Origin: an uncultured Methanomicrobiales archaeon
Lineage (GTDB): Archaea; Halobacteriota; Methanomicrobia; Methanomicrobiales; Methanospirillaceae
Direction of reading: 5' to 3'
Assembly (NCBI GenBank): GCA_963697895.1
Contig: OY969100.1
Location: forward strand, 1,728,001-1,792,000
Length of the DNA stretch: 64,000 nt
A program made the translations under genes and the position numbers. The number at the start of each line of letters is the position of its first letter. Within the stretch, counting starts at the first letter, position 1. Positions 41,974 to 62,275 of this stretch are shown here, piece by piece. The notes under the pieces were generated by a model that was not told where the DNA came from, ran no database searches, and saw nothing but the letters and a program-made list of their open reading frames with translations.

Positions 41974-42435
41974 TTACTCCTTTGCGGTATCTATTTTAGG
42001 GATCTCCGGATGAGGTTCGCACTTGGGATCGTCACCATGGCGATGGCTGGTCTCCTCCCATGGTTCGAGACCATGGTTCACCCGGTAATCATTGATCGCC
42101 TTATGGATCCCTTCTTCAGCCAAGACTGAGCAATGCATTTTTATCGGGGGAAGACCTTCCAACGCTTCTGCGACCGCTTTGTTGCTCACAGTCCATGCTT
42201 CTTCAAGGGTCTTTCCCTTGATCAGCTCGGTGGCCATGCTGCTTGATGCGATCGCTGCCCCGCAACCGAACGTCTTGAATTTCGCATCAACAATACGATT
42301 GTTCTCGATCTTAAGGAAGATCTTCATAATATCCCCGCATATAGGATTGCCAACCTCGCCAACCCCGTCTGGGTTTTCTATCTCCCCCACATTTCGCGGA
42401 TTGGCGAAATGGTCCATCACCTTTTCGCTATACAT
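41974..42435 (-). CDS. iscU: Fe-S scaffold IscU/NifU
   Basis: YSEKVMDHF.NPRNVG, GNPICGD, TFGCGAAIA, LPPIKMHCS. Confidence 0.95.
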   Translation of the reverse strand: MYSEKVMDHFANPRNVGEIENPDGVGEVGNPICGDIMKIFLKIENNRIVDAKFKTFGCGAAIASSSMATELIKGKTLEEAWTVSNKAVAEALEGLPPIKMHCSVLAEEGIHKAINDYRVNHGLEPWEETSHRHGDDPKCEPHPEIPKIDTAKE

Positions 42436-43621
42436 GGCAATCTTTCTCCGTGGGGGAATAGAGCGGGGACATCGCACGCAATTTTGTTACCACCTGTGGT
42501 ACCACCTCAAGTACCTTGTCGACATCATCACGGGTATTTTCCTCTCCCAGTGTGAACCGGAGAGATCCATGTGCAACTTCATGGGGGAGACCGATTGCCA
42601 TCATCACGTGCGAAGGTTCAAGCGACCCTGAAGTGCAGGCGCTTCCCGTCGATGCACAGATGCCGTATCCATCGAGGAGTAGGAGCATTGACTCTCCCTC
42701 GACAAATTCCACACTCACGTTCACATTCCCAGGCAACCGCAGGTTGGAATGTCCGTTCAGCCGGGTGTGCGGGATTGTGCTGAGTATTCCATTAATCAGG
42801 CGATCACGCAGGTTCCGGAGCCTTTCAGCTTCTTCCTTCCTGTTTCGTATGGCGATATCGAGCGCTGTTGCCAGCCCCACGATCCCGGCAAGGTTCTCCG
42901 TACCTGCTCTCCGGTTCCGCTCCTGGCCCCCACCCTGAAGAAGGGGATCGATCTTCGTCCCTCTCCTGATATAGAGGACGCCCATTCCTTTCGGCCCATA
43001 GAATTTGTGCGCTGATATGGAGAGCAGGTCAATGTTATCTTCCTTCACCGATACAGGAATATGCCCGACTGCCTGGACAGCATCGGTGTGAAAAGGAATC
43101 CCGTGACTTCGGGCAATACTGCCGATTTCCCGTGTTGGTTCAATCGTCCCGATCTCGTTATTTGCTGTCATGATCGAAATGAGGATGGTCCTGTCGGTGA
43201 TGGAATCTTCAAGGAGTTTCGGATCAATAAGTCCGGATGCGTCAACCGGTAGGAAGGTGACTCGAAATCCCTGCTTTACCAAATACTGTGCTGGATAGAG
43301 CACAGCGTGATGCTCGATTGCAGAGGTGATGATATGGTCTCCTTTTTTCCGGTTTGCATAGGCAATACCTTTCAATGCCCAATTATCCGACTCCGTTCCA
43401 CCGGATGTAAAATAAATCTCTCCCGGCTCTGCACCCAGCGCACGGGCAACCACTTCACGGGCCGATTCAACAACTTTTTTCGATTCCCGTGCTATGGAAT
43501 AGATCGAAGAGGGGTTCCCGAAACGGTCATGAAAATACGGGAGCATGGCCTCCATGACTTCAGGTTTTACTGAAGTGGTAGCGGCATGATCCATGTAGAT
43601 GAGTTTTTGATCAGGTGTCAT
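42428..43621 (-). CDS. iscS: Group I cysteine desulfurase IscS/NifS
   Basis: YMDHAATT, SGGTESDN, SAHKFYGPKG, STGSACTSG. Confidence 0.95.
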   Translation of the reverse strand: MTPDQKLIYMDHAATTSVKPEVMEAMLPYFHDRFGNPSSIYSIARESKKVVESAREVVARALGAEPGEIYFTSGGTESDNWALKGIAYANRKKGDHIITSAIEHHAVLYPAQYLVKQGFRVTFLPVDASGLIDPKLLEDSITDRTILISIMTANNEIGTIEPTREIGSIARSHGIPFHTDAVQAVGHIPVSVKEDNIDLLSISAHKFYGPKGMGVLYIRRGTKIDPLLQGGGQERNRRAGTENLAGIVGLATALDIAIRNRKEEAERLRNLRDRLINGILSTIPHTRLNGHSNLRLPGNVNVSVEFVEGESMLLLLDGYGICASTGSACTSGSLEPSHVMMAIGLPHEVAHGSLRFTLGEENTRDDVDKVLEVVPQVVTKLRAMSPLYSPTEKDCHV

Positions 43622-43720: not shown

Positions 43721-43734
43721 TTCACAATTGTGAA
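43721..43734. promoter_or_regulatory. Palindromic operator TTCACAATTGTGAA (site 1), between divergent iscS and the APS-reductase-like::sufS gene
   Basis: Perfect 14-bp palindrome (16 bp with flanks), intergenic. Confidence 0.85.
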
Positions 43735-43936
43735 TGCGTATTCAAATGTTGTGAGTGAGTGCATTTAATTGTTCTGTTTGAAGTTCCCAAAAATAATTCA
43801 GAGAAGACAATAACCTGGATTTTCATAACAGCTCCCGGAATTCTTACCTCAAGTCCGAGCTTGACGGTAATACCATGGGGTAGGTGCTCCCTCCTGGACA
43901 CTGATATTATCAAGCTGCCATGTGCACCTTATAGTG

Positions 43937-46564
43937 ATGCGGGATCCCCCGGTGAAAAAGACGCTCTATTGGTGCGACCACTGCGATGTCCCCCTGATCG
44001 GTAAGCATTGCGGATGCGGAAATACGGGAAGGGCGATCTCCCTGCTACAGCCCTATGATGTCCGTCCCGCCCTATCCCATGACACGGAGTTGATCTATTC
44101 GCTTATCAACGAGCGGTTTGGAGATTTACGCCTTCCACAAGTCATTCTTTTGAACAAAACAGGAGGAATTGACCGGAATGACCTGGTGATAACCCATGGA
44201 GAACGATTGGGGTGGCTCTCATTCGATCCGGTAAGCCGGAAGTTCCGGTTTGACCTTGCGCCAGAGGGACTCCCGTTCATCCTTTCGGAAATGAAAAGAG
44301 GAATAATCGATCTCGAGGCCGCGATTCCTTCTTCAGAAGGGAAGCCCTCAGGGAGGATTGGAGGCAAGCGGTTCAGGGTTACAACCCAGGAGCAGGATGG
44401 AACTGTTATCGTGCGGTATCGTAAACAGTTTGGTACTGGAGTCCTGAAGAATGGATATTTGAGGGTAAAGGAGCTGGGAACGGTACCGGAACGGGAATCC
44501 CCCGACCCGGGCTGGGATGTTGTGGTGGCCAGGAATCAGTACCACTTGAAAAACCTGGAGAGAAACGCGATACGGGCTATCCGCCAGCATATGCATGATC
44601 GCCCGAGGGTGAATGTATCATTTTCCGGGGGAAAGGACAGTACCGCGGTCCTTGCACTCGCTCGCAAGGCCGGTGTCCACGAAGCTTTCTTCATCGATAC
44701 CGGGATCGAATTCCCAGAGACCTTGGCATTTATTGAAAAACAGGGGGTAAAGATCGTCAGGAGAGGTGGGGATTTCTGGAGTGCCGTTCAGAAGGCCGGA
44801 CCACCGGCAAAAGATCGCAGATGGTGCTGCAAACTCCTGAAATTGAATCCACTGAAACTACATCTGGCTGAAACGGGCCCCTGTGTCACCATCCAGGGAA
44901 ACCGGTGGTATGAGTCGTGGAACAGGGCAGACCTAGACATCACCAGCCAGAACCCGGCCAATCCACTCCAGCTGAATATCTCGCCAATCCGAAATTGGCG
45001 GGCACTTGAAGTGTACCTCTACCTCTGGTGGCAGAGGATCCCCTACAATCCCCTATACGACCAGGGGCTTGAGCGGATCGGTTGTTACCTCTGCCCCGCC
45101 ATGCTCGAGAGCGAATCTGAACAACTCGAGAAGATACACCCTGAATTTGCGTCGCGATGGAATGATTTTCTCAGAGGTTGGGAAGATTCCCGGGGGCTTC
45201 CCCGTGAGTATCACAAATGGGGCCTTTGGCGTTGGAAGGAACTCCCTCCCAAGATGAAGGGACTCTGCGAAACCCATGGGATCGTGCTTCAGGAAAACCC
45301 TGTTGCTATCCGCCGGACAACTCCCTCCCCTTATGCGGTCTCCGGGAATGTCGCAGTGCCGAAAAAGGAAGATGATAGTATGATCTATGAAGATGTCAGG
45401 AAGGATTTCTCGCTGGTCGCCGACATTATCTACCTGGACAGCGCCGCGACCAGCCTCTCACCGGAACCGGTGCTGGAGGCAGTCCTTGAATTCGAAAGGA
45501 ACTATCGGGCGAACGTCGGTCGGGGGGTGCACCGATTGGCGCAGATAGCCACCCAGCGGTACTGGCACGCCCATGAGAAAGTTGCCCGTTTCATCGGCGG
45601 GGAGAATGGCACCACGGTGTTTACCAAGAATACCACGGAAGCCATCAACATGGTCGCCCGAGGCCTGGGGTTGCGGAAGGGGGACAGGGTTGTCACCACC
45701 ATCCTCGAGCACCATTCAAACCTCGTCCCCTGGATGCATCTCAGGCAAGAAGGAGTAGACCTCGAGATCGTGGGGATCAACAGAGACTATAGTTTGAATC
45801 TATCAGCACTCGAGGCTGCGGTCACCGATTCAACAAGGCTGGTCACTCTATCCCATGTGTCCAATGCCCTTGGGGTGATCTGTCCCGTCGAAGAGGTGGC
45901 CCGGATCTGCCGGGACCAGGGGGCACTCCTCCTCATTGATGGATCCCAGTCCGTCCCACACCTACCCCTAGATATACATCGTATCGGGGCTGATTTTCTC
46001 TGCTTCTCGGGGCACAAGATGCTCGGACCGACCGGAACAGGCGTGCTCTGGATGAAAGAGCCGGTAATTGCGCCAAGCGACCTGGGAGGAGGGATGATCG
46101 ATACCGTATCAGAGGGGGGATACACCCTCGCCGAAGGATACCAGCGGTATGAAGCCGGCACTCCGAACATCAGTGGTGGAATTGGCCTTGGTGCTGCTGT
46201 CGATTACCTGAAAAGGGTAGGTATGGACAAGATAAGGAGCTCTGAAGAACGTCTGACAACACGGCTTATCGAAGGGCTCCGTTCCATCGACGGGGTAACA
46301 GTCTATGCGCATGACGATCCTGCACGGCGAATCGGAGTCGTTTCATTCACCGTTTCAGGATTCCATCCCCACGAGGTGGCACAGGCACTCGATGAACAGG
46401 CCGATATCATGGTCCGGTCTGGGCATCACTGCTGCATGCCCCTCATGCAGCGACTAGGCCTGCCGGATGGCACAATCAGGGCAAGCCTTTACCTCTACTC
46501 TGCGAATCACGAGGTCGATACTCTCCTCGCGACGGGGAAGGACATTGCGAGAAGTCGTTTATAA
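43937..46564 (+). CDS. Fusion: Zn-ribbon + PAPS/APS-reductase-family domain + SufS-type cysteine desulfurase
   Basis: WCDHC..HCGC; SFSGGKDS, RWCCK, RIGCYLCP; then YLDSAAT, FSGHKMLGPTG, EAGTP, RSGHHC; no stop between domains. Confidence 0.88.
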   Translation: MRDPPVKKTLYWCDHCDVPLIGKHCGCGNTGRAISLLQPYDVRPALSHDTELIYSLINERFGDLRLPQVILLNKTGGIDRNDLVITHGERLGWLSFDPVSRKFRFDLAPEGLPFILSEMKRGIIDLEAAIPSSEGKPSGRIGGKRFRVTTQEQDGTVIVRYRKQFGTGVLKNGYLRVKELGTVPERESPDPGWDVVVARNQYHLKNLERNAIRAIRQHMHDRPRVNVSFSGGKDSTAVLALARKAGVHEAFFIDTGIEFPETLAFIEKQGVKIVRRGGDFWSAVQKAGPPAKDRRWCCKLLKLNPLKLHLAETGPCVTIQGNRWYESWNRADLDITSQNPANPLQLNISPIRNWRALEVYLYLWWQRIPYNPLYDQGLERIGCYLCPAMLESESEQLEKIHPEFASRWNDFLRGWEDSRGLPREYHKWGLWRWKELPPKMKGLCETHGIVLQENPVAIRRTTPSPYAVSGNVAVPKKEDDSMIYEDVRKDFSLVADIIYLDSAATSLSPEPVLEAVLEFERNYRANVGRGVHRLAQIATQRYWHAHEKVARFIGGENGTTVFTKNTTEAINMVARGLGLRKGDRVVTTILEHHSNLVPWMHLRQEGVDLEIVGINRDYSLNLSALEAAVTDSTRLVTLSHVSNALGVICPVEEVARICRDQGALLLIDGSQSVPHLPLDIHRIGADFLCFSGHKMLGPTGTGVLWMKEPVIAPSDLGGGMIDTVSEGGYTLAEGYQRYEAGTPNISGGIGLGAAVDYLKRVGMDKIRSSEERLTTRLIEGLRSIDGVTVYAHDDPARRIGVVSFTVSGFHPHEVAQALDEQADIMVRSGHHCCMPLMQRLGLPDGTIRASLYLYSANHEVDTLLATGKDIARSRL

Positions 46565-46629: not shown

Positions 46630-47613
46630 TCACACATCCCGGAAAGGCGTGAGATCGCACCCGGTACAGGGGAGGCACATCGTCTTTGCTGCACGGGGGT
46701 CAAGATTAAACTCAGCAAGAAGAGCCTTTTGCATCCGTGCCAGCCGGAGCAGGCGATCGGGCGAGGGTCTATTGACTTTCACCTCGCCAGCCCTGAGCGG
46801 GGAAGCGGAGATTGGTCGAAGGATAGGGATCACTCCCCGTTCGGCCAAAAGCCTCACGCCTTCCCTGACGCAGGCATCATCTTCCCCAAGCCCGATGATG
46901 AAATTGGAAAAGACTGCATTCTTCCCGAAAATCTCCACGGCATGCTCCAGGGAGGCAATGATGAACTCAAGGGAGAGGCCTGGGCAGACCCGTGCAAAGA
47001 TATCCCGGTCTGTGGTCTCAACATTTTACTTGATCTCGTCAGCCCCGGCAGCAGCAAGGATTTCTGAGGAAGTGGTTGTCGGGTATACCGAGACCCCGAT
47101 GGGGAGATCGAATTGTTCCCGGAGCACTCTCACAACCTCTGCCATTCTTAAAACCTCCTTCCCGGGCGTATCGGCAACCCCGCTTGTCAATGAAATTGCT
47201 TTAAGGGTCCCCCCGGCAGCAGCCTCTTCGACCTTTCTTAAGACGGTTGCTCTTCCCTTGATCTTCCCCTGCAGTCTTGGCACCGGGCAGAACTTGCAAT
47301 CATAGATGCACCGCTCGCTGATAGTAATGTACGCCTGATCGGGGCAGTGACAGAGTGATGGTTCAAGCGTTCCATGGGTGATCTCAGTACCGTTCAGGAC
47401 CGCTACTACCCGGTTTCCATCGGGCATAATGTTAAGTGAAGATGCCGGATTGATGGAGAGCCGGACACGGTGATCCCCGGACCGGAGAAAGAAGGAGGCC
47501 CCTCCCGCGCCGGGACCTGCTGTAGCAGTCGTCTTCAGGGACCCTGTGATAAGCGCCTCATCGATCCGTGCACTCCCGATGCTTAGCAGTAGGGCTTTTT
47601 CCTCAGGGGTCAT
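46630..47613 (-). pseudogene. Biotin-synthase-related radical SAM protein interrupted by an in-frame TAA at 47026-47028
   Basis: CIYDCKFC core and C-terminal CLPCTGC; both halves are in the same frame and read EIK*NVET. Confidence 0.75.
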
Positions 47614-47762: not shown

Positions 47763-47804
47763 TTCACAATTGTGAATTACAATACAATGATTAACAATTG
47801 TGAA
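47763..47804. promoter_or_regulatory. Operator pair: TTCACAATTGTGAA (47763-47776) and TTAACAATTGTGAA (47791-47804)
   Basis: 28-bp spacing; the second site abuts TATATA (47805-47810); between divergent radical SAM and nadA. Confidence 0.85.
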
Positions 47805-47907: not shown

Positions 47908-48819
47908 ATGACTGATCGCAACACGCTCCGGAGGGAGATCCTTTCCCTCAAAGAGGAATGGAACGTTATCATCCTTGCACATAACTACCAGAATGCCGAG
48001 GTTCAGGATATCGCCGATCTGGTCGGGGATTCGCTCGAACTTGCACGGGCTGCAGGGTCAATGGAAGGTGCGGTTATCGTGTTCTGCGGTGTTGACTTCA
48101 TGGCAGAGACGGCTTCGCTCCTTTCACCGGACAAGACGGTTCTTCTGCCAGCAATTGATGCCTGCTGCCCCATGGCAGAGATGGTGACCTCTGGCGAACT
48201 TGCCGTCTTGAAGGACAGGTATGCGGATGCCGCTGTGGTTTCTTACGTGAATACTACGGCCGAAGTGAAAGCGGTGAGTGACATTTGCTGCACCTCAGCC
48301 AATGCGGTTAAAGTGGTAGAATCTCTCCCTGAATCACGGGTTATCTTTGTTCCCGATCGGAACCTTGCCAGTTATGTTGCCCGACATACATCCAAAATAA
48401 TCCTTCCCTGGGATGGCTACTGTATTGTTCATGATCGCATCACTGTTGAGGATGTCCTCAGGGAGAAAGCCCAGCATCCTGATGCTGAATTGCTTGTCCA
48501 TCCCGAATGCCGTCCCGAAGTGGTTGACTGTGCTGACCACGTATTCTCCACTTCGGGAATCATCAGGCACACCTGCGAAAGCCAAAAAGAGGAGTTCATA
48601 ATCGGAACTGAAGTCGGGATCCTCCACCGGATGAAGAAACTCTGCCCTGAAAAACGAATTTTCCCACTCTCTCCAAAAGCAATATGTGCGAATATGAAGA
48701 AGATATCCCTCGAAAAGGTGCTTACAGCCATGGAAAGGATGGAACCACGGGTTACGGTTCCACCTGACATTGCAGCACCAGCCCGTCGGGCAATCGAACG
48801 GATGCTTGCGATCTCCTGA
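47908..48819 (+). CDS. nadA: Quinolinate synthase
   Basis: ILAHNYQ, VGDSL, CGVDFMAE, CPMA, YVNT, CTSANA, CIVH, HPEC, CANMK. Confidence 0.96.
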   Translation: MTDRNTLRREILSLKEEWNVIILAHNYQNAEVQDIADLVGDSLELARAAGSMEGAVIVFCGVDFMAETASLLSPDKTVLLPAIDACCPMAEMVTSGELAVLKDRYADAAVVSYVNTTAEVKAVSDICCTSANAVKVVESLPESRVIFVPDRNLASYVARHTSKIILPWDGYCIVHDRITVEDVLREKAQHPDAELLVHPECRPEVVDCADHVFSTSGIIRHTCESQKEEFIIGTEVGILHRMKKLCPEKRIFPLSPKAICANMKKISLEKVLTAMERMEPRVTVPPDIAAPARRAIERMLAIS

Positions 48820-50744: not shown

Positions 50745-50758
50745 TTCACAATTGTGAA
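50745..50758. promoter_or_regulatory. Palindromic operator TTCACAATTGTGAA upstream of the thiN-like unit
   Basis: Perfect copy directly downstream of a minus-strand TATA-like AGTATATC (50761-50768). Confidence 0.85.
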
Positions 50759-52576: not shown

Positions 52577-52906
52577 TCAGGAGTCGCACTCCGATGGTTC
52601 ATACCCGCACTGGTCCCCTTCCTCCCTTAGTTGCTTGCAGATATCACAGATCCGGTCAACGAGGTTTTCCACTTTTCCGTCCTTGAGGTCCTGTGCAAGG
52701 CGTTCAATCGATCGTTTTACTTCATCCTCAAACTCGATTCGGTACCCGCGTTTACCGGATATATACTGGGATACCGCAGAGGGGGCAATCTCGAGCATTT
52801 TTGAGGCCTCGATCTGGGATACTCCGCACCTTACCAGTTCGACGGCAATTGCCGCCCTGATTGCGGGCAAAACATCCCATACAATCTTTTGACACGGTGC
52901 CTGCAT
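52577..52906 (-). CDS. Small Cys-rich XRE-like HTH transcriptional regulator (ThiR-N/COG2522-like)
   Basis: PCQ....VLPAIRAAIA.EL...GVSQ.E..KML.IAPSAVSQYISGKRG; C87-x2-C90, C100, C107. Confidence 0.85.
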   Translation of the reverse strand: MQAPCQKIVWDVLPAIRAAIAVELVRCGVSQIEASKMLEIAPSAVSQYISGKRGYRIEFEDEVKRSIERLAQDLKDGKVENLVDRICDICKQLREEGDQCGYEPSECDS

Positions 52907-52947: not shown

Positions 52948-52961
52948 TTCACAATTGTGAA
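52948..52961. promoter_or_regulatory. Palindromic operator TTCACAATTGTGAA upstream of HTH-larE-fdhD
   Basis: Perfect copy ~40 bp before the HTH start codon. Confidence 0.85.
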
Positions 52962-53102
52962 TCAACTTAGGAACCCAAAATAGTTTGCACGCTCTTTTTT
53001 TTTCATTTTGGAACGATCACTCCCCTTTAAGAGATCCATTGGAGGATCATCTACCGCTTACGAAATCTATAAATAATCACAATAGTTATCAAATAAGGTA
53101 AG

Positions 53103-53116
53103 TTCACAATTGTGAA
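53103..53116. promoter_or_regulatory. Palindromic operator TTCACAATTGTGAA immediately 5' of tRNA-Cys
   Basis: Perfect copy 6 nt before the tRNA; TATAAATA at 53068-53075 is followed by a degenerate copy ATCACAATAGTTAT (53076-53089). Confidence 0.85.
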
Positions 53117-53122
53117 TTCAAT

Positions 53123-53194
53123 GCCCGGGTGGCAGAGTGGTGATGCGTCAGACTGCAGATCTGATCAATATGAGTTCAATTCTCATCCCGGGCT
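53123..53194 (+). tRNA. tRNA-Cys (GCA)
   Basis: Acceptor GCCCGGG/CCCGGGC + U73; anticodon arm TCAGA-CTGCAGA-TCTGA (G37); T arm ATGAG-TTCAATT-CTCAT. Confidence 0.9.
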
Positions 53195-53210
53195 TTCAGG
53201 TGACACAACA

Positions 53211-54575
53211 ATGGATAACAGGATAGATAACGTCTTTCGTGCCCTCTTTACCCTTGAGGACCTGCGGGAAATCCACCGCAAGGCACTCCCCACGGGTATG
53301 GATGCTAAAGAGGAGGACCAGTACCGGGAAACCCTGGCCCGCCTGAAAAGGATCATCTCTGATATCGAGCGGGGGAGACCCGCAAAGGAAATCACGAAAA
53401 TCGCCGGAACCATTGATATCCGTACCCGTGAGGAGAATTACATCAATATTCAGCCCATCCAGGCTGCAGGACGGCTCACACCGGAGGCACGGAAGGCGGT
53501 TATTGCATATGGAGACGGGTATTCGACCTGTGACGCCTGCCGAAAACCCTTCCGCCTCGACAAGATCTCAAGGCCGGGGATAGCCGAGTTCCATGCAGAC
53601 CTTGCAAAGTTCGTGAATATGGACCAGGCCCGGGTCGTGCCTGGGGCGAGGCGCGGGTTCCAGGCAGTCACGGGGACATTAGTGGAGAAAGGCGACAGCG
53701 TAATCGTATCCGCACTTGCTCACTATACCGAGTTCCTCGCAGTGGAAAATGCCGGAGGGATCGTTAAGGAAGTGCCCCTCAACGAGAAAAATATCGTAAC
53801 GGCAGATGCGATGGCACAAAAAATCGAGGATGTCAAACGGGAGACGGGAGAACTCCCGGTACTCGTCATGATCGACCACATCGATTACCAGTTCGCAAAT
53901 GAGCACGAGATCGCCGGAATCGGAAAAGTCGCGCACCAGTACGACATCCCGTTCCTCTATAATGGTGCCTACACTGTCGGGGTCATGCCGGTCGACGGTA
54001 AGAAAATAGGAGCTGACTTTGTCGTCGGCTCCGGACACAAGAGTATGGCATCGGTCGCACCGTCCGGGGTGCTTGCGATGACTGATGAATGGGCACCTTC
54101 CGCGCTCCGCACCACCGCGATGGTCGGTGACCTTACCAAGAGGAAGTTTGGCATCAAGGAGGTCGAGATGCTCGGATGCACGCTGATGGGCGGGACCCTC
54201 ATTTCCATGATGGCCTCGTTCCCGATCGTCAAAGCACGGACGCAGATTTGGGACAATGAGGTAAAAAGGTCCAACTACTTCATCGACCGTCTGTTGAAAA
54301 TTTCCGGCAGCACAGTGCTCTCTGAGTATCCACGCAAGCATACCCTCACGAAGGTGGACACAACAGGAAGCTTCGATACTGTGGCAAAAACTCACAAACG
54401 GCGCGGGTTCTACTTCAGCGACGAATTGTCATCCCGCGGGATCGCCGGAGAGTTTGCCGGGGCGACGAGGACCTGGAAGCTGAACACCTACGGGCTCAGT
54501 GATAAGAAAATCCGGTACCTTGCGGACGTTATCACCGAAATTGCGGAAAAATACGAATTACCCGTCTGTAAATGA
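53211..54575 (+). CDS. pscS: Sep-tRNA:Cys-tRNA synthase with N-terminal helical extension
   Basis: NIQPIQAAGRL, GDGYSTCDAC, GARRG, AHYT, GSGHKS, LGCT; ~65-aa extra N-terminal domain; start at ATG 53211. Confidence 0.92.
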   Translation: MDNRIDNVFRALFTLEDLREIHRKALPTGMDAKEEDQYRETLARLKRIISDIERGRPAKEITKIAGTIDIRTREENYINIQPIQAAGRLTPEARKAVIAYGDGYSTCDACRKPFRLDKISRPGIAEFHADLAKFVNMDQARVVPGARRGFQAVTGTLVEKGDSVIVSALAHYTEFLAVENAGGIVKEVPLNEKNIVTADAMAQKIEDVKRETGELPVLVMIDHIDYQFANEHEIAGIGKVAHQYDIPFLYNGAYTVGVMPVDGKKIGADFVVGSGHKSMASVAPSGVLAMTDEWAPSALRTTAMVGDLTKRKFGIKEVEMLGCTLMGGTLISMMASFPIVKARTQIWDNEVKRSNYFIDRLLKISGSTVLSEYPRKHTLTKVDTTGSFDTVAKTHKRRGFYFSDELSSRGIAGEFAGATRTWKLNTYGLSDKKIRYLADVITEIAEKYELPVCK

Positions 54576-54584
54576 GGACCAACA

Positions 54585-55883
54585 ATGTCAGACAAGAAAT
54601 TCCGTTTAGGAACGACCGCCCTCCATGCAGGGCAGGTACCCGACCCAACCACCGGGTCACGGACTGTACCGATCTACCAGACGACCTCGTACATGTTCAA
54701 GAACACGGAGCATGCTGCAAACCTATTCGGGTTAAAAGAGCTCGGGAATATCTACACCCGGCTTATGAACCCGACAACGGATGTCTTCGAAAAGCGCATT
54801 GCTGCAATTGAAGGAGGGACCGGCGCCATCGCAACAGCATCGGGAGCTGCGGCAATAACCTACGCGATCCTGAACATCACTCGTCCCGGTGACGAGATCG
54901 TCTCAGCAGACAACCTGTATGGCGGTACGTACGAGTTCTTCCACTATACCCTCCCGAAGTTCGGGCGGTACGTCATCTTCGTAAACTCCTCAAAACCGGA
55001 AGAATTCAGGAAAGCGATCACCGGGAAGACAAAGGCGATCTATGCTGAGACCGTCGGCAACCCGAAACTGGATGTCCCTGACTTTGAGAAGATTGCGCAG
55101 ATAGCCCATGATGCCGGCGTTCCCTTTATCGTTGACAACACGACCGGAGTCGGTCTTGTCCGCCCGATAGATCACGGTGCTGATGTCGTCGTCCATTCGG
55201 CGACCAAGTACATCGGCGGTCATGGGAACTCTCTCGGGGGAGTCGTCGTCGACTCTGGCAAATTCGCGTGGAATAATGGTAAGTTCCCCGAGTTCACCGA
55301 TCCGGACCCGAGTTATCACGGCCTGAAATACTGGGACACGTTCGGAAATTTTCCCGGCCTCGGGAACGTGGCATTTGTCTTCAAGATCCGGGTCTCACTC
55401 ATGAGGGATACCGGTGCCGTACTCAGCCCGTTCAATGCCTGGCTTTTCCTCCTCGGCCTTGAGACCCTGCACCTGCGGGTACCCCGCCACTCTGAGAATG
55501 CCCTTGCCGTCGCGGAATTCCTTAACAACCACCCGAAGGTGGCCTGGGTGAACTATCCGGGACTTCCCGATAACCCAAACCACGAGCTCACAAAAAAATA
55601 CCTTGTAGGCGGGTATGGCCCACTTGTCGGGGTTGGTATAAAGGGCGGTGAAAAGGCAAGCAGAAAGTTCATAGACAGCCTCAAGCTATTCAGTAACCTC
55701 GCTAATATCGGAGACTCGAAGAGCCTGGTCATCCACCCGGCGAGCACGACTCACCAGCAACTCACGGTCGAGGAACAGGCAAAGACCGGTGTCACGCCAG
55801 ATGCAGTTCGGCTCGCGATCGGTACCGAAGATATCGAAGATATTCTCTCAGACCTGGATCAGGCATTGGAAGGGGCTTGTTGA
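54585..55883 (+). CDS. metY: O-acetylhomoserine aminocarboxypropyltransferase/sulfhydrylase
   Basis: [51 protein letters not shown]. Confidence 0.93.
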
Positions 55884-57359
55884 TGATCAAAGGTTCGGTG
55901 GGTATTGTGGAGACGAAGTATTACCAACATCAGTACATACTCGAACTAGAAAGCGGGGAAACCCTGCCTTTTCTCACAATCGCCTACGAGACCTATGGAA
56001 AACTGAACCGGGACAAGAGTAACGGGATTCTGCTCTGTCATGCCCTTTCAGGGGATGCCCATGTCGCCGGATTTCATGAAGGCGATGAAAAGGCCGGGTG
56101 GTGGGATAGTGTCGTCGGCCCCGGGAAAGCAATTGATACAGATCGTTACTTTGTCGTATGTTCCAATGTGATCGGCGGGTGCAAGGGCTCCACTGGTCCT
56201 TCGTCCCCTCATCCTGAAACCGGGAAGCCCTATGGGTTATCCTTTCCGGTCATCACCATCGGTGACATGGTGACAGTCCAGAAGATGCTCCTCGATCACC
56301 TGGGGATAAAGCGGCTTTTCGCCGTTGCGGGAGGGTCGATGGGAGGAATGCAGGCACTGCAATGGACGGTCTCCTACCCCGACATGGTAAAAAAAGCGAT
56401 CATCATCGCAGCAACCGGGTATTCAACACCCCAGCAGATCGCGTTTAATGAAGTGGGGAGGAAGGCGATCATCTCCGATCCCGACTGGAACAACGGGGAT
56501 TATTACGGAAGATCGCTGCCCATCCATGGGCTTTCGCTGGCACGGATGGTCGGTCATATCACCTACCTGTCCGACGAGTCGATGCACGCAAAGTTCGGAA
56601 GGGCGCTGCAGGGCAAGGAGCAGATCGGGTTTGACCTCTCCACCGACTTTCAGGTGGAGAGTTACCTCCATCACCAGGGCGATACATTTACCCGGCGGTT
56701 TGATGCGAACTCATACCTGTACATCACCAAGGCGATCGACTACTTTGATCTGACACAAGACGATTCACTCACAAACGGCCTCTCGGGGGCAAAGGCAAAC
56801 TTCCTCGTCATCTCGGTCTCCTCCGACTGGCTCTACCCTCCGTACCAGTCGCAGGAGATCGTATCAGCGCTGGCGGCAAACGAGCGGGATGTTCATTACT
56901 GTGAGATACGCTCCAATTATGGCCACGATGCCTTTCTGCTGGAATCCGGGCAGCTCGAACTACCTTATCGGGAAATTCCTCTCCTCAACCGTGGTGGAGG
57001 ATATAATGACCCGGAATATCCAGATTATCGAGGAAGGAACGACGATCGCAGTCGCGGCGCGTTGCATGATAACGGTGGGGGTAAACCACCTCCCTGTTCT
57101 TACCAGTAATGGGAAACTCGTAGGGATTGTTACATCATGGGACATTGCAAAGGCAGTGGCCTCCAATTACCTGTGGCTGGATGAGATCATGTCAAAAAAT
57201 GTAATCACGAGCACGGTGGGTGAGTCAATCGAGTCGGCGGCAAAGAAGATGGAAGAACATCAGATCTCGGCGCTTCCGGTAATTGATGAACAGGAACATG
57301 TTATCGGGCTTGTCACGAGCGAAGCAATCAGTATGCTCATCGGTGGGTGGAATACGTGA
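55883..57359 (+). CDS. metX: Homoserine O-acetyltransferase fused to a C-terminal CBS pair, frameshifted (+1 at ~56957)
   Basis: [31 protein letters not shown]; removing G56957 joins ESGQL|NYLIGKFL to the CBS pair. Confidence 0.88.
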
Positions 57360-57871
57360 GAATTCTTTCCATTCATGCCGATTCAATGTGGTACCGTGCA
57401 ACACAGAAGACGCAAATGGCCGAGTACATCCAGCAGAGGGAAGATCTGATGAAGGAATGTGTCGTGCTCTTCTGCTGTGTGGAAAAGCTGGACGAGCGGA
57501 GCCCGGATTACGTGATCGCAAGCGCGATAAGGAACATCCTCGAACGGCTGAACAAATTGAAGGTGCACCAGGTGATGATCTATCCGTACGCACATCTCAC
57601 GAGCACACTCGGCTCTCCGGAGTGTGCGCTCCGGATCCTCATAGGTATTGAAGAAGGGCTTCGTGCATCGTCGGTGGAGGTCAAACGGGCGCCGTTTGGC
57701 TGGTATAAGGAGTTCGAGATCCGGGGAAAGGGACACCCGCTTGCGGATCTCTCCATGACAATCTGCCCGTATGAAGGGGTCGAATGTGATTTCCAGTGCC
57801 CGTACTGCAAAAATCCGATCAAGGAAGGCGATCTCCAGAGAACCCGACCTGTGGCGCACATCATGAATTAG
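57356..57871 (+). CDS. Free-standing archaeal ThrRS editing domain (DTD-like) with Cys-rich tail
   Basis: [31 protein letters not shown]...KGHPLADLS; tail CPYEGVECDFQCPYC. Confidence 0.85.
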   Translation: MRILSIHADSMWYRATQKTQMAEYIQQREDLMKECVVLFCCVEKLDERSPDYVIASAIRNILERLNKLKVHQVMIYPYAHLTSTLGSPECALRILIGIEEGLRASSVEVKRAPFGWYKEFEIRGKGHPLADLSMTICPYEGVECDFQCPYCKNPIKEGDLQRTRPVAHIMN

Positions 57872-57897
57872 ACGGTACCCGGGGATGGAATATTCGA

Positions 57898-59010
57898 ATG
57901 ACAAGGCAATGGCTCGTCCGATATTCGGAACTGTTCCTGAAATCAGACCCGGTTCGTCGTCGGTGGGAACAGGTCCTCATTGCGAATATCCTGAAGGTAT
58001 CGCCGGAGATCCAGGTAAGAAGCGAGCGTGGACGCATTTGGCTTAGCGGAGAGGTGATTCCGGAGTGGCTGGAAAAAATCTTCGGCGTTATCTCGTTCTC
58101 CGAGGTCGAGCAGGTACCACTCGGACGGCTCGATTCGGTCCTTCCGGATTACTGCCGTTGTAAAGGGATGGAAAAGGTCAAAACGTTTGCCATCCGAATG
58201 AAGCGGGTTGGGAATCATACCTTCACTTCGCATGAAAAAGCGATCGAATACGGCAACCTGATTCGAAGAACGTTTCCACACCTGAAAGTGAACCTTGCGA
58301 CTCCGGATAAGGAGATATTCATTGAGATCCGGGGATACGAATGTTACCTGTATGATTCGATGATCAAGGGGCCGGGGGGTCTTCCCCTGGGCGTTGAAGG
58401 AACACTGGTTGCGCTCCTGTCCGGTGGAATCGACTCGCCGGTTGCCACATGGATGATGATGAAGCGGGGGTGCAGGATCATTCCGTTGTTCATCGCCCTC
58501 GACAGTGTCCTCGATGAGACTAACCGCGAGCGTGCAGAGAGCGTCGTCGAAGCACTACGGGCGTATCAGCCGGATATCGAGCTCTGCGTGATCACCGATT
58601 CGTATCTTTCCCGTGCAAAACAGGAACTCACACGGGTCGGTCTGGAAAAATATACCTGTATCTTCTGTAAACGAAGGATGTACCGGGTCGCAGAAAAGTT
58701 CGCGCGAAATGCGGGGGCGAAAGGGTTCGTTACGGGTGAATCCCTCGGACAGGTCGCGTCCCAGACACTGGATAATCTCATGGTCCTGAACGAGGCAGCG
58801 ACCATGCCGGTATACCGCCCCCTCATCGGGTTTGACAAGGAAGAAACAATCCGCATCGCACGGGAGATTGGCACCTTCGCCGCTTCCATCACACACGCAA
58901 CCGGATGTACAGCGGTTCCGAAGGGACCCTCAACGAAGGCAGATCTCGACACAATCAGACAGATTGAAAAGGAACTACTTTCCTTCAGTGATACTATTCC
59001 CTTATCCTGA
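57898..59010 (+). CDS. thiI: tRNA 4-thiouridine synthase
   Basis: VRYSELFLKS, THUMP domain, LSGGIDSPVA, CIFC, TGESLGQVASQT, RPLIG, C-terminal GC. Confidence 0.93.
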   Translation: MTRQWLVRYSELFLKSDPVRRRWEQVLIANILKVSPEIQVRSERGRIWLSGEVIPEWLEKIFGVISFSEVEQVPLGRLDSVLPDYCRCKGMEKVKTFAIRMKRVGNHTFTSHEKAIEYGNLIRRTFPHLKVNLATPDKEIFIEIRGYECYLYDSMIKGPGGLPLGVEGTLVALLSGGIDSPVATWMMMKRGCRIIPLFIALDSVLDETNRERAESVVEALRAYQPDIELCVITDSYLSRAKQELTRVGLEKYTCIFCKRRMYRVAEKFARNAGAKGFVTGESLGQVASQTLDNLMVLNEAATMPVYRPLIGFDKEETIRIAREIGTFAASITHATGCTAVPKGPSTKADLDTIRQIEKELLSFSDTIPLS

Positions 59011-59894: not shown

Positions 59895-59921
59895 TTCACA
59901 ATTGTGATTCACAATTGTGAA
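59895..59921. promoter_or_regulatory. Tandem operators TTCACAATTGTGAT (59895-59908) and TTCACAATTGTGAA (59908-59921)
   Basis: Head-to-tail copies sharing one base, upstream of DUF1890. Confidence 0.85.
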
Positions 59922-60088: not shown

Positions 60089-60102
60089 ATAACAATTGTG
60101 AA
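60089..60102. promoter_or_regulatory. Near-consensus operator ATAACAATTGTGAA upstream of sufS-cysM
   Basis: 12/14 match, directly before a TTTTTAT TATA-like box (60105-60111). Confidence 0.7.
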
Positions 60103-60173
60103 CATTTTTATCCCATGCGATTCTCATGAGTATTGCACATTCCGTGGATACCTTTTCTCCAGGGTGATTGTTG

Positions 60174-61340
60174 ATGTATGATCTACAAAAGTTACGCCAG
60201 GAATTTCCGATACTTTCAAAATGTGTCTACCTAGACAGTGCCTCGACCAGCCAGACACCCCGGTGCTCTGTCGATGCGATGTGTGAATATTTCTTCGAAT
60301 ATGCGGCGAACCATGGAAGAGGTGCTCATCACCTCGCCCGGAAGACAACCGAAAGGTACGAAGAGACCAGAACCAGGCTCGGAAATTTTCTGAAGGTCAC
60401 TCCGGATCACATTATATTCACAAAGAATACCACAGATGCGGTAAATACGGTTGCAAACGGGCTTACGTGGAAACGGGGCGATGAAATTATCACCACGTGG
60501 CTGGAACATCATTCAAATCTTCTTCCCTGGATGATGCTTAAGCGAAAGGGTGTCCGACTTACGATCATCCCACATGAGAACGGATATCTCGATCCCCATG
60601 CAATCCAGGAGGCAATCTCATCAAAGACGAGATTGATTGCGGTCACCCATATGCCCAATATCCTCGGAACGGTCCAACCGGTCGAGGCAATCGGTCGAAT
60701 CGCCCATGATGCCGGGGTGCCTGTGGTCGTTGACGGAGCGCAATCCGTCGGGCATTTTCCTGTTGATGTTACTTATATCGATTACCTGGCAATTCCCGGT
60801 CACAAAGGACTTCTCGGGCCGCAGGGTACTGGGGCGCTTTATACGAAAGATCCAGAGTCTTTGAATTGTTCGATCTACGGGGGAGGGATGGTGGTATCCG
60901 TCTCGCATAATGAAGTAAAATTACTCCCTCCCCCAGCCAAATTTGAACCAGGGACGCCAAATATCCCGGGAGTTATCGGGCTCGGTCCGGCAATTAATCT
61001 CGTCAGTTCAATGGGCGTCAGGAATATTCACTCTTATGAGAAGAAACTCGGCTCTCAGATGTATGCGGGATTGGTAAGAATTCCCGGCGTGAGTATATAC
61101 AGCCCGCACGGAACCGGCGTAGTTTCATTCAATGTCGCCGGGCATAATCCGAATGAATTTTCCCGGAAGCTTGATGATTACCGGAAGATCTGTGTGAGGA
61201 GCGGTATGCATTGCGCAGAACCACTGGCGAGCAGTTATCATTGTGAAGGGACGATCCGGGCCTCGGTCGGTTGTTATACCACGTCTGATGAAGTTGATGA
61301 CCTGATCGAGAGTGTCCGGCATCTGAGCGGGAACGATTAG
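60174..61340 (+). CDS. Group II (SufS-like) cysteine desulfurase
   Basis: YLDSAST, EHHSNLLPW, DGAQS, GHKGLLGPQG, EPGTP, RSGMHCA. Confidence 0.9.
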   Translation: MYDLQKLRQEFPILSKCVYLDSASTSQTPRCSVDAMCEYFFEYAANHGRGAHHLARKTTERYEETRTRLGNFLKVTPDHIIFTKNTTDAVNTVANGLTWKRGDEIITTWLEHHSNLLPWMMLKRKGVRLTIIPHENGYLDPHAIQEAISSKTRLIAVTHMPNILGTVQPVEAIGRIAHDAGVPVVVDGAQSVGHFPVDVTYIDYLAIPGHKGLLGPQGTGALYTKDPESLNCSIYGGGMVVSVSHNEVKLLPPPAKFEPGTPNIPGVIGLGPAINLVSSMGVRNIHSYEKKLGSQMYAGLVRIPGVSIYSPHGTGVVSFNVAGHNPNEFSRKLDDYRKICVRSGMHCAEPLASSYHCEGTIRASVGCYTTSDEVDDLIESVRHLSGND

Positions 61341-61345
61341 ATCTT

Positions 61346-62275
61346 ATGGTCTCCATAGATCAAGCGCGAACGGTTCTTGATGCAATCGGGAACACCCCGC
61401 TCGTCGAGATCCGGAACCTAAACCCCTATCCGGCGATCCGCATCTTTGCAAAGTTTGAAGGCTGCAATCCCGGAGGGTCGATCAAGGACCGGATTGCCCT
61501 TTTCATGATCCTTGCAGCGGAACAATCCGGTGAACTTTCGCGCGATAAAATCATTATGGAACCGACCTCAGGGAATACCGGTATTTCGCTCGCCATGATC
61601 GGAGCTGCAAAAGGGTACCGGGTAAAGCTGGTTATGCCTGGTTGCGTAAGTGTCGAACGCAGACGAATTATTGAGGCGTTTGGGGCGGAAGTGGTGATCA
61701 CCCCTTCGGAGGAGGGAACGGATGGCGCGATCCGGCGAGCATGGAAACTTGCTCAGGAGGACCCGGATATGTACTATATGCCCGATCAGTTCTCAAATCC
61801 TGCGAATATTCAGGCCCATTATGAAACCACAGGTCCGGAGATATATCGCGCACTGGACGGGAAGATCGATTGTTTTGTCGCAGGTATGGGTACCACGGGG
61901 ACACTGATGGGTGTCGGGCGATTTTTAAAAGAGATGAATCCGGGGATACGCATTATTGGGATTGAACCTGAACCGGGACATGCCATCCAGGGCCTGAAAA
62001 ACATGGAAGAGGCAATCGTACCGAAGATCTACGATGCAAATCTGCTCGATGAAAAGATACGGATCGGAGATGAGGAGGCGTATGTGATGGCCCGGAAAAT
62101 TGCGACCCGGGAAGGGATATTCACTGGCATGTCGAGCGGAGCAGCTTTTGCTGGAGTGCTGAAAGTCGCAGAATCACTGGATTCCGGAACCATCGTCACC
62201 ATCTTCCCGGACCGTGGGGACCGTTACCTCAGTACCACCCTATTCCGTTCGATCTGCGGCGATTGCAATCCTTAG
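61346..62275 (+). CDS. PLP-dependent cysteine synthase (CysM/CysK family)
   Basis: IGNTPLV, NPGGSIKDR, EPTSGNTG, GMGTTGT, IQGL, SSGA, PDRGDRYLST; C-terminal CGDC. Confidence 0.92.
   Translation: MVSIDQARTVLDAIGNTPLVEIRNLNPYPAIRIFAKFEGCNPGGSIKDRIALFMILAAEQSGELSRDKIIMEPTSGNTGISLAMIGAAKGYRVKLVMPGCVSVERRRIIEAFGAEVVITPSEEGTDGAIRRAWKLAQEDPDMYYMPDQFSNPANIQAHYETTGPEIYRALDGKIDCFVAGMGTTGTLMGVGRFLKEMNPGIRIIGIEPEPGHAIQGLKNMEEAIVPKIYDANLLDEKIRIGDEEAYVMARKIATREGIFTGMSSGAAFAGVLKVAESLDSGTIVTIFPDRGDRYLSTTLFRSICGDCNP

Follow-up and report, generated by a model that had tools for sequence, protein, structure and literature searches.

A tRNA-Cys gene and the SepCysS gene (pscS) behind it, at positions 53123 to 54575 of a 64,000-nucleotide (nt) stretch of DNA from an uncultured Methanomicrobiales archaeon (Methanospirillaceae), probably form the beginning of an operon that serves the tRNA-dependent synthesis of cysteine and is under the control of a repressor. 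The stretch, referred to here as the window, comprises positions 1,728,001 to 1,792,000 of OY969100.1 (assembly GCA_963697895.1) and is part of a single 2.09-Mb contig; the genome is labeled G000. The gene content of 53123 to 54575 is an already published arrangement (PMC5424206). The palindrome TTCACAATTGTGAA in front of the tRNA is read here as an operator, and a small cysteine-rich protein encoded nearby is the candidate repressor. The features that carry this reading are as follows (positions are those of the window; operators are given without strand).

52577 to 52906, minus strand: 109-amino-acid (aa) Cys-rich XRE/HTH_3-like protein, candidate repressor, first gene of a regulator-LarE-FdhD unit.
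52948 to 52961: operator in the regulator's own promoter, exact TTCACAATTGTGAA, 42 nt upstream of the start codon (motif scan).
53068 to 53075, plus strand: TATA box TATAAATA of the tRNA-Cys/pscS promoter, with the same TATAAATA at the same distance in orthologous promoters.
53076 to 53089: degenerate operator-like ATCACAATAGTTAT right after the TATA box, with 4 mismatches and the TCACAAT half intact (sequence).
53103 to 53116: main operator TTCACAATTGTGAA, its centre 38 bp downstream of the TATA centre.
53123 to 53194, plus strand: second tRNA-Cys(GCA), type A (ARAGORN, RF00005, and an alignment of 48 tRNA-Cys sequences).
53198 to 53203, plus strand: Shine-Dalgarno-like AGGTGA in the 16-nt tRNA-pscS spacer, with GGAGG/GGTGA-like motifs in the same place in relatives.
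53211 to 54575, plus strand: SepCysS paralogue 2, 454 aa, apparently with a fused SepCysSN-type domain at residues 1 to about 70 (NF006810, TIGR02539, 3wkr_A, 2e7i_A, alignment A1, and an AlphaFold2 [AF2] model).

ARAGORN reports the tRNA-Cys(gca) at 53123 to 53194 on the plus strand as one of two tRNAs in the window, and the gene scores 63.4 bits against Rfam RF00005 (gathering score, 29) over model positions 1 to 71 of 71. In the Rfam alignment the acceptor stem is GCCCGGG/CCCGGGC and the T stem is AUGAG/CUCAU, the D stem carries a G13-A22 mismatch, the anticodon loop is CUGCAGA (GCA, with G37), the discriminator is U73, and the 3' end reads CCCGGGC-U; CCA is not encoded in the gene. The GCA anticodon, U73, and G37, which we take to be the Cys identity set of tRNA-Cys, are all present. 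These elements are common to SepRS and CysRS according to the accessible passages of PMC8762117. A pseudo-tRNA or a read-through open reading frame (ORF) was ruled out, since the tRNA outscores the housekeeping copy and the SepCysS orthologues begin at the ATG. An alignment of 48 distinct tRNA-Cys sequences contains two types. Type A, that of the window, has the D stem GCAG/AUGC and the T stem AUGAG/CUCAU, occurs in families f1, f2, f4, and f5, and is usually the copy joined to SepCysS, while type B resembles the copy in the rRNA operon. Both types are found behind operators and both retain GCA, G37, and U73, which are kept in nearly all of the 48 sequences, with L065 as the visible exception at the 3' end. 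The sequence-only reading, which preceded this analysis, had listed the GCA anticodon, G37, U73, the GCCCGGG acceptor, and an A/U-rich T stem (ATGAG/CTCAT), and the Rfam alignment agrees on every item; the A/U-rich T stem appears to be a conserved feature of an isoacceptor and not a peculiarity of the window gene.

The suspicion in that reading that this might be a second tRNA-Cys also proved correct, as G000 has two tRNA-Cys genes among 46 tRNAs. The other copy belongs to the rRNA operon, with the 23S rRNA gene on one side and the 5S rRNA gene on the other (L085, G000:C1:1369000-1372500), scores 55.5 bits with RF00005, and is identical to the window copy at 45 of 72 positions. The genome likewise holds two SepCysS genes. 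SepCysS-1, the other copy, is 393 aa long and 60% identical to residues 63 to 454 of the window enzyme, and the end of a 59-aa ORF coincides with its start (L013:1325-1504; the pair occupies G000 C1 817593-818953, or L013:1325-2685). SepRS is present in G000 with 672.6 bits, and CysRS was not detected in G000, where the best match reached 31 bits against a cut-off of 340 that 13 of 14 control genomes pass; a tRNA specific to CysRS was ruled out for G000 because no CysRS was found. Without CysRS, the tRNA route would be the only source of Cys-tRNA in this genome. A search of G000 for serine acetyltransferase gave nothing above the cut-off, and for this reason the tRNA route is probably also the main source of cysteine. 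CysRS was found in 7 of 41 relatives, and the operator-linked tRNA-Cys occurs among these 41 both with CysRS (G003, G004, and G020) and without it (G000, G015, G021, G030, and G035). The CysRS gene of G003 and that of G020 lie within a few kilobases of the sulfur island. In G004 (G004:C1:2055703-2057017) the CysRS gene is preceded, at a distance of about 100 nt, by one more tRNA-Cys-like gene, the 5' half of which is divergent, and an operator site at 2052260 of that genome lies 3.4 kb upstream of this region.

The pscS gene starts at the ATG at 53211, 16 nt past the 3' end of the tRNA and after the AGGTGA at 53198 to 53203. A mechanical ORF call from a GTG (53112-54575; 487 aa) passes through the tRNA-Cys gene. 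In alignment A1, which comprises 18 SepCysS sequences (the window enzyme and 17 others), the 17 others are 452 to 458 aa long and align from residue 1 of the 454-aa product of the ATG, and the true start is therefore this ATG and not the GTG at 53112, as the sequence-only reading had argued in calling the longer ORF wrong. The distances in that reading, 6 nt from operator to tRNA and 16 nt from tRNA to pscS, hold as well. The enzyme matches NF006810 with 625.6 bits (cut-off, 301) over residues 60 to 451 and TIGR02539 with 390.9 bits (cut-off, 365.25) over residues 70 to 449; the Archaeoglobus fulgidus structure PDB 2e7i_A aligns by its residues 6 to 370 to residues 74 to 448, and the Methanocaldococcus jannaschii enzyme PDB 3wkr_A is also matched. 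Residue K277 (in SGHKSM), presumably the pyridoxal phosphate lysine, and C107, C110, and C323, presumably the three active-site cysteines of SepCysS, are invariant across A1 and aligned with 3wkr_A.

Because the family models and 2e7i_A match only from residues 60 to 74 onward, about 70 N-terminal residues are extra. The AF2 model built from the 18 sequences is confident over the N-terminal 60 or so residues (predicted local distance difference test [pLDDT], 73 to 93), with helices at residues 3 to 24 and 32 to 54; the full-length model is poor (mean pLDDT, 61.6) and was used for these helices alone. The 59-aa ORF in front of SepCysS-1 aligns by its residues 6 to 29 with residues 5 to 28 of the window SepCysS (46% identity; pair E value, 6e-7), and on this ground the extension is read as a SepCysSn-type domain, which appears here in fused form. 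G000 would then hold the adaptor peptide both split (SepCysSn) and fused (SepCysSN). The N-terminal peptide is homologous to the N-domain of SepCysE and occurs split or fused, and an 8-residue insertion, which the window enzyme also has relative to the M. jannaschii SepCysS, is typical of SepCysS clades II to VII, as stated in the available part of PMC5424206. Neither a phmmer search of PDB with the window SepCysS nor the A1 profile at an E value of 10 or less reached the SepCysE chains, and because the A1 profile missed SepCysE, the relation to it rests on the literature (PMC5424206, structure-guided alignment). The earlier proposal of about 65 extra helical residues is thus close to what was found; of its assignment to a SepCysE-related SepCysSn domain, the SepCysSn part agrees with the match to the split ORF, and the SepCysE part drew no match from the A1 profile in PDB at an E value of 10 or less.

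The arrangement of the promoter is what points to repression. Orthologous promoters share the order TATAAATA, an operator-like site, 12 to 14 nt, the full operator, 6 to 13 nt, and the tRNA. The site abutting the TATA box, degenerate in the window, is a near-perfect operator in relatives (TTCACAATTGTGAC in L042 and TTCACAATTGTTAT in L037). Among 50 distinct operator-tRNA-Cys promoters, 41 have a good TATA-like box, and in 37 of these 41 the TATA centre is followed by the operator centre after 37 to 39 bp; between operator and tRNA, by contrast, there may be anything from 6 to 18 nt. Since the TATA distance is fixed while the tRNA distance varies, the operator is placed relative to the promoter and not to the tRNA. 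Archaeal TATA boxes are centred about 26 to 27 bp upstream of the transcription start, by which rule transcription would start near 53098 to 53099 and the operator would span about +5 to +18. Archaeal repressors that block the recruitment of RNA polymerase occupy such a position downstream of the start, and an operator at or after the predicted start fits repression and not activation. The 16-nt gap between the tRNA and pscS contains no oligo-T run and leaves no room for a promoter, and pscS is accordingly read from the tRNA promoter; we infer that the tRNA-Cys and pscS genes are co-transcribed. It is very likely, judging from these sequence features, that the tRNA is a second, operator-controlled copy transcribed together with pscS.

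The operator-tRNA-Cys module is widespread in the order. A composite pattern (operator core, 5 to 20 nt, and the 5' end of tRNA-Cys), with the reversed pattern as a control, was searched in 401 genomes of the order Methanomicrobiales (215 of high quality) and in a 401-genome sample of the phylum; the pattern is strict and misses variants, and many of the genomes are incomplete, so the genome counts are lower bounds. The pattern occurs in 93 of the 401 genomes of the order (54 of the 215 of high quality), in all six families (f1, 74/220; f2, 6/20; f3, 1/12; f4, 3/39; f5, 5/55; f6, 3/54) and in 19 of 44 genera. In the phylum sample 26 of the 401 genomes match, including 7 from two families that are not among the six sampled for the order (f7, 6/57; f23, 1/16). 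The reversed pattern has no match in either set. The fetched loci, a sample in which matches are over-represented, contain 44 distinct tRNA-Cys genes. An operator core lies no more than 80 nt upstream of 40 of them, with a nearest gap of 6 to 18 nt, and for 21 of the 44 a SepCysS start follows within 212 nt. The operator-linked tRNA of this module is always tRNA-Cys and never another tRNA. The palindrome had been proposed as the operator of the tRNA from the window alone, and its retention 6 to 18 nt upstream of tRNA-Cys across genera, at a fixed TATA distance, bears this out; the view that the tRNA leads a SepCysS operon is likewise upheld by the spacer described above and by the junction kept in 21 of the 44 genes.

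This conservation bears on the possibility that the operator stands beside the tRNA by coincidence, in a horizontally acquired tRNA-Cys/SepCysS cassette whose tRNA is redundant and under no separate control. Compact tRNA-Cys/SepCysSn/SepCysS cassettes are described as prone to horizontal transfer in the accessible sections of PMC5424206, and the low identity between the two tRNA-Cys genes of G000 would suit such an origin. The operator-tRNA junction is, however, conserved with both tRNA types, in six families and two further ones, with fixed TATA spacing and without a single match for the reversed control, and coincidence is extremely improbable.

The tRNA might instead be a cis-acting module that gives the downstream mRNA a defined 5' end and serves its processing or stability, any rise in tRNA-Cys being an unselected by-product. 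A short spacer with a Shine-Dalgarno motif separates the tRNA from the start codon, and tRNA-Cys heads different sulfur operons, SepCysS-O-acetylhomoserine sulfhydrylase (OAHS) here and ThiF-ThiS in G180 and G240; in these two f5 genomes the first operator-tRNA-Cys unit of a cluster leads a ThiF-ThiS pair (E1-like enzyme and sulfur carrier). Against this, SepCysS is missing downstream of about 19 of the 40 operator-linked tRNA-Cys genes, and several of these are followed by no co-oriented gene at all (L041, L043, L082, L083, and L092), the stand-alone units of L043, L082, and L083 being convergent with the next gene. Units are also repeated back to back in arrays of three or four, always of tRNA-Cys. 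Four tRNA-Cys genes lie in a stretch of about 3 kb in G180 (L080, C23:21000-30000), and three are clustered in G240 (L081, C1:1219000-1228000); most have their own operator, and in each genome the last is joined to SepCysS-OAHS. Where a locus holds four such genes, an operator precedes three or all four of them. The low-G+C f7 genome G675 (L091, C1:142000-154000) has four in 1.8 kb, three with an operator 8 to 11 nt upstream, preceding a 454-aa SepCysS that is 72% identical to the window enzyme, and G550 (f7) has a stand-alone operator-tRNA-Cys. A role in cis alone is therefore given little chance, and control of the tRNA dose itself is the preferred reading. G004 and G025 also keep an operator-less tRNA-Cys, the 5' half of which is nearly identical to that of the rRNA-operon copy of G000. 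An identical pair of type A tRNA-Cys genes, 1446 bp apart and without an operator within 80 nt, is present in G020 (G020:C1:2227508 and 2228954; L045 / L049).

The same operator recurs around the locus. Searches with TTCACAATTGTGAA allowed up to 2 mismatches, with shuffles or scrambled palindromes of the same composition as controls. The window has 9 matches against 0.16 expected, and none of 100 shuffles reached 9; the genome has 15 sites, nine of which fall in a 16.4-kb part of the window, the sulfur/iron-sulfur (Fe-S) island, and 30 scrambled palindromes gave a mean of 3.4 genome matches. All nine window sites are intergenic and lie in front of the genes listed above and below. The nine sites appear to mark a regulon for sulfur mobilization, cysteine, and Fe-S metabolism, of which the tRNA-Cys/pscS unit would be one member. 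The whole-genome scan found no operator site with up to 2 mismatches near SepRS, SepCysS-1, or the rRNA-operon tRNA-Cys. The sole operator-like site outside the island with no more than 1 mismatch is G000:C1:1898783-1898796 (L084:1984-1997; 1 mismatch), which was set aside as a probable chance match since it lies inside a 338-aa ORF. The remaining genes of the pscS unit and the other operators of the window are as follows.

54585 to 55883, plus strand: OAHS, 9 nt past pscS (TIGR01326, 653.1 bits).
55877 to 57109, plus strand: homoserine O-acetyltransferase MetX, overlapping the OAHS stop (NF001209, 528.6 bits).
57796 to 59010, plus strand: ThiI, tRNA 4-thiouridine / thiamine sulfurtransferase (TIGR00342, 283.8 bits).
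43721 to 43734: operator between the divergent genes for NifS (42428-43621, minus strand) and a PAPS-reductase-like/SufS fusion (43922-46564, plus strand).
47763 to 47804: two operators 28 bp apart upstream of NadA (47908-48819, plus strand).
50745 to 50758: operator upstream of ThiN / AIR-synthase-like genes (50614-48972, minus strand).
59895 to 59921: two operators overlapping by one base, TTCACAATTGTGATTCACAATTGTGAA, upstream of DUF1890-DUF1894 (59839-59070, minus strand).
60089 to 60102: operator with 2 mismatches upstream of SufS-like (60168-61340) and CysK/CysM-like (61346-62275) genes.

The SepCysS-OAHS gene order is conserved in relatives, and ThiI is possibly the end of the tRNA-Cys/pscS transcription unit. 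NadA (quinolinate synthase) is an Fe-S enzyme. The 880-aa fusion at 43922 to 46564 combines a PAPS-reductase-like ATP-pyrophosphatase (PF01507, residues 230 to 393) with a SufS-type desulfurase (residues 501 to 875), and its operator is about 190 bp upstream. The 218-aa protein at 46649 to 47305 (plus strand) has no Pfam or NCBIfam match; its homologues, with 54 to 56% identity, adjoin the stand-alone operator-tRNA-Cys in G003, G004, and G020 (L043:1812-2465, L082:3014-3664, and L083:2082-2735). The double operator of DUF1890-DUF1894 places two proteins of unknown function in the putative sulfur regulon.

The candidate for the factor that reads these sites is the 109-aa protein. Alignment A2, of 37 diverse members of its family, has near-invariant P4, C5, P14, G28, Y48, K52-R53-G54, C87, and C90, and further cysteines are frequent near position 100 and the C terminus; 32 of the 37 members match HTH_3 at an E value of 0.01 or less (best, 2.4e-08). 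The AF2 model has five helices (pLDDT, 86.8). The weak top rows of its Foldseek search, with E values of 0.2 to 1, are all of the XRE family (ClgR, an XRE regulator, and HigA), and the sequence had no match in PDB at an E value below 1. Rrf2 is absent from the Pfam matches of the 109-aa protein and from the 25 families listed of the 50 matched by the 37 homologues. The family is large and unnamed, with 963 representative clusters at an E value of 0.001 or less and 879 close relatives annotated as transcriptional regulator or hypothetical. The prediction of a two-copy complex from A2 scored 0.01, which has no bearing on a dimer either way.

The gene and its upstream operator are conserved in relatives, and the operator adjoins the regulator in 15 of the 17 regulator-bearing loci L020 to L036. 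Co-occurrence was counted in the 41 related genomes, whose kinship makes them dependent observations and the result an association, not a test: at least 2 operator sites with no more than 1 mismatch are present in 18 of the 41, and 16 of these 18 have a regulator match at an E value of 1e-25 or less. In the f7 genome G550 the same operator accompanies a regulator of 66% identity. It is likely from this association that the 109-aa protein binds the palindrome, and highly likely from the promoter geometry that it represses; it would also autoregulate, its own operon being controlled in the same way.

Several points weigh against the account given so far. The Pfam HTH_3 score of the 109-aa protein, 21.3 bits, is below the 23-bit cut-off, and the Foldseek search of its fold had no match at an E value of 0.001 or less. 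Six of the 23 relatives with 0 or 1 operator sites nevertheless have a regulator match at 1e-25 or less, and G002 (73% complete) and G024, with 2 operator sites each, have no regulator match at an E value of 1e-10 or less. The low HTH_3 score and these two genomes would suit a true operator that is bound by a different factor, the 109-aa protein being merely one of the regulated genes. Such a factor is unlikely, as the operator lies directly upstream of the regulator in most relatives and again in another family, in front of the 66%-identical protein, a close orthologue accompanies the sites in 16 of the 18 genomes with at least 2 of them (the exception G002 being incomplete), and a perfect 14-bp palindrome suits a small dimeric helix-turn-helix (HTH) protein.

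The promoter argument has its own weak points. The predicted transcription start depends on the general rule for archaeal TATA boxes, and at NadA the TATA-like AATATATAAC comes after the operators and not before them, so that the geometry is not uniform in the regulon. Some archaeal activators bind at the TATA box or upstream of it, and the NadA operators at 47763 to 47804, upstream of or over AATATATAAC, could be sites of an activator or of a dual-function factor that, when bound, also turns the tRNA-Cys/pscS promoter on. That this is so is improbable, because in 37 of 41 tRNA-Cys promoters the operator falls over or just past the start and its second copy abuts the TATA box, the geometry with which MDR1, LrpA, and NrpR reportedly repress. 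The strict composite pattern was not found in 308 of the 401 genomes of the order, many of which are incomplete and in which variants are missed. Finally, the conserved cysteines and the genes that make up the regulon allow no more than a guess at the signal: the likeliest trigger, put at somewhat less than even chances, is that a shortage of sulfide, cysteine, or Fe-S supply strips the protein of a Cys-ligated Fe-S cluster or modifies its thiols.

Under the repressor reading, a single promoter with its TATA box at 53068 to 53075 would drive a leader of about 24 nt, the tRNA-Cys, the spacer, pscS, OAHS, MetX, and perhaps ThiI, and RNase P and tRNase Z would presumably release the tRNA from the primary transcript. 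A dimer of the 109-aa Cys-rich HTH protein on TTCACAATTGTGAA would block the recruitment of RNA polymerase. Neither member of the housekeeping pair, SepCysS-1 (with the split SepCysSn) and the tRNA-Cys of the rRNA operon, has an operator, and this pair would supply basal Cys-tRNA. When sulfide, cysteine, or Fe-S supply falls, the repressor would leave the DNA, SepCysS and its tRNA scaffold would rise together and give more capacity for making cysteine on tRNA, and the cysteine desulfurases and sulfur carriers that consume this cysteine would rise too. A further speculation, to which we give a small chance, treats tRNA-Cys as a titratable biosynthetic cofactor of methanogens that form cysteine on tRNA: type A, with its weak A/U T stem, would be a scaffold specialized for SepRS/SepCysSN that is poorly delivered to the ribosome, its cysteine would feed a desulfurase sulfur relay in place of translation, and a Cys-rich, Fe-S- or thiol-sensing repressor from a family new to the literature would set the dose through one to four operator-driven genes per genome.

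If the repressor reading holds, a tRNA gene would rank among the targets that a sulfur/Fe-S regulon has conserved best, in all six families of the order and two further ones of the phylum. As a rule, tRNA genes are expected to track growth rate and to stand outside metabolite-specific regulons. Such control would fit a role of tRNA-Cys as a biosynthetic cofactor in organisms with SepRS and SepCysS, and would account for the two SepCysS and several tRNA-Cys genes that many methanogens retain. It would also name the 109-aa Cys-rich HTH family as the candidate master regulator of methanogen sulfur assimilation. The same operator is present in low-G+C genomes of 2 to 5 Mb in another family; these may belong to genetically tractable methanogens, in which case the proposal could be tested. 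The full-text literature within reach, which excludes subscription journals and supplements, yielded no paper on this operator, on the regulator family, or on transcriptional control of tRNA-Cys, and no regulator described for methanogen sulfur assimilation.

The regulatory part of the locus has functional counterparts in bacteria. IscR, CymR (Rrf2), and SufR are small, dimeric, autoregulated, Cys-bearing repressors that act at palindromic sites on desulfurases, cysteine synthase, and Fe-S enzymes. The likeness to them is functional only, as the candidate here is XRE/HTH_3-like without an Rrf2 match and would act at archaeal TATA promoters, and we know of no bacterial counterpart regulon with tRNA gene targets. 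Among archaeal repressors, MDR1, LrpA, and NrpR share with the locus an operator downstream of the TATA box over the start and paired operators about 26 to 28 bp apart; they differ from it in protein family and operator sequence, and here tRNA genes are among the targets.

The gene content has its closest likeness in the clusters of Mukai 2017 (PMC5424206), the available passages of which describe a second SepCysS copy in some methanogens with a tRNA-Cys and a few sulfur genes adjoining SepCysS. G000 is alike in these respects and has both the split and the fused forms of the adaptor. Those passages mention no shared operator, no regulator, and no multiple operator-driven or stand-alone regulated tRNA-Cys, and a scan of window ORFs did not reveal the tRNA-Thr-ED gene that is reported there in the vicinity of clade VII SepCysS. 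The SepRS-SepCysE-SepCysS transsulfursome of class I methanogens, as presented in the accessible part of Chen et al. 2017 (PMC5688128), takes the same route from Sep-tRNA-Cys to Cys-tRNA-Cys with an adaptor on SepCysS; the adaptor of the window enzyme differs from it in being, by the present alignment and model, a two-helix domain of about 70 residues fused to SepCysS itself.

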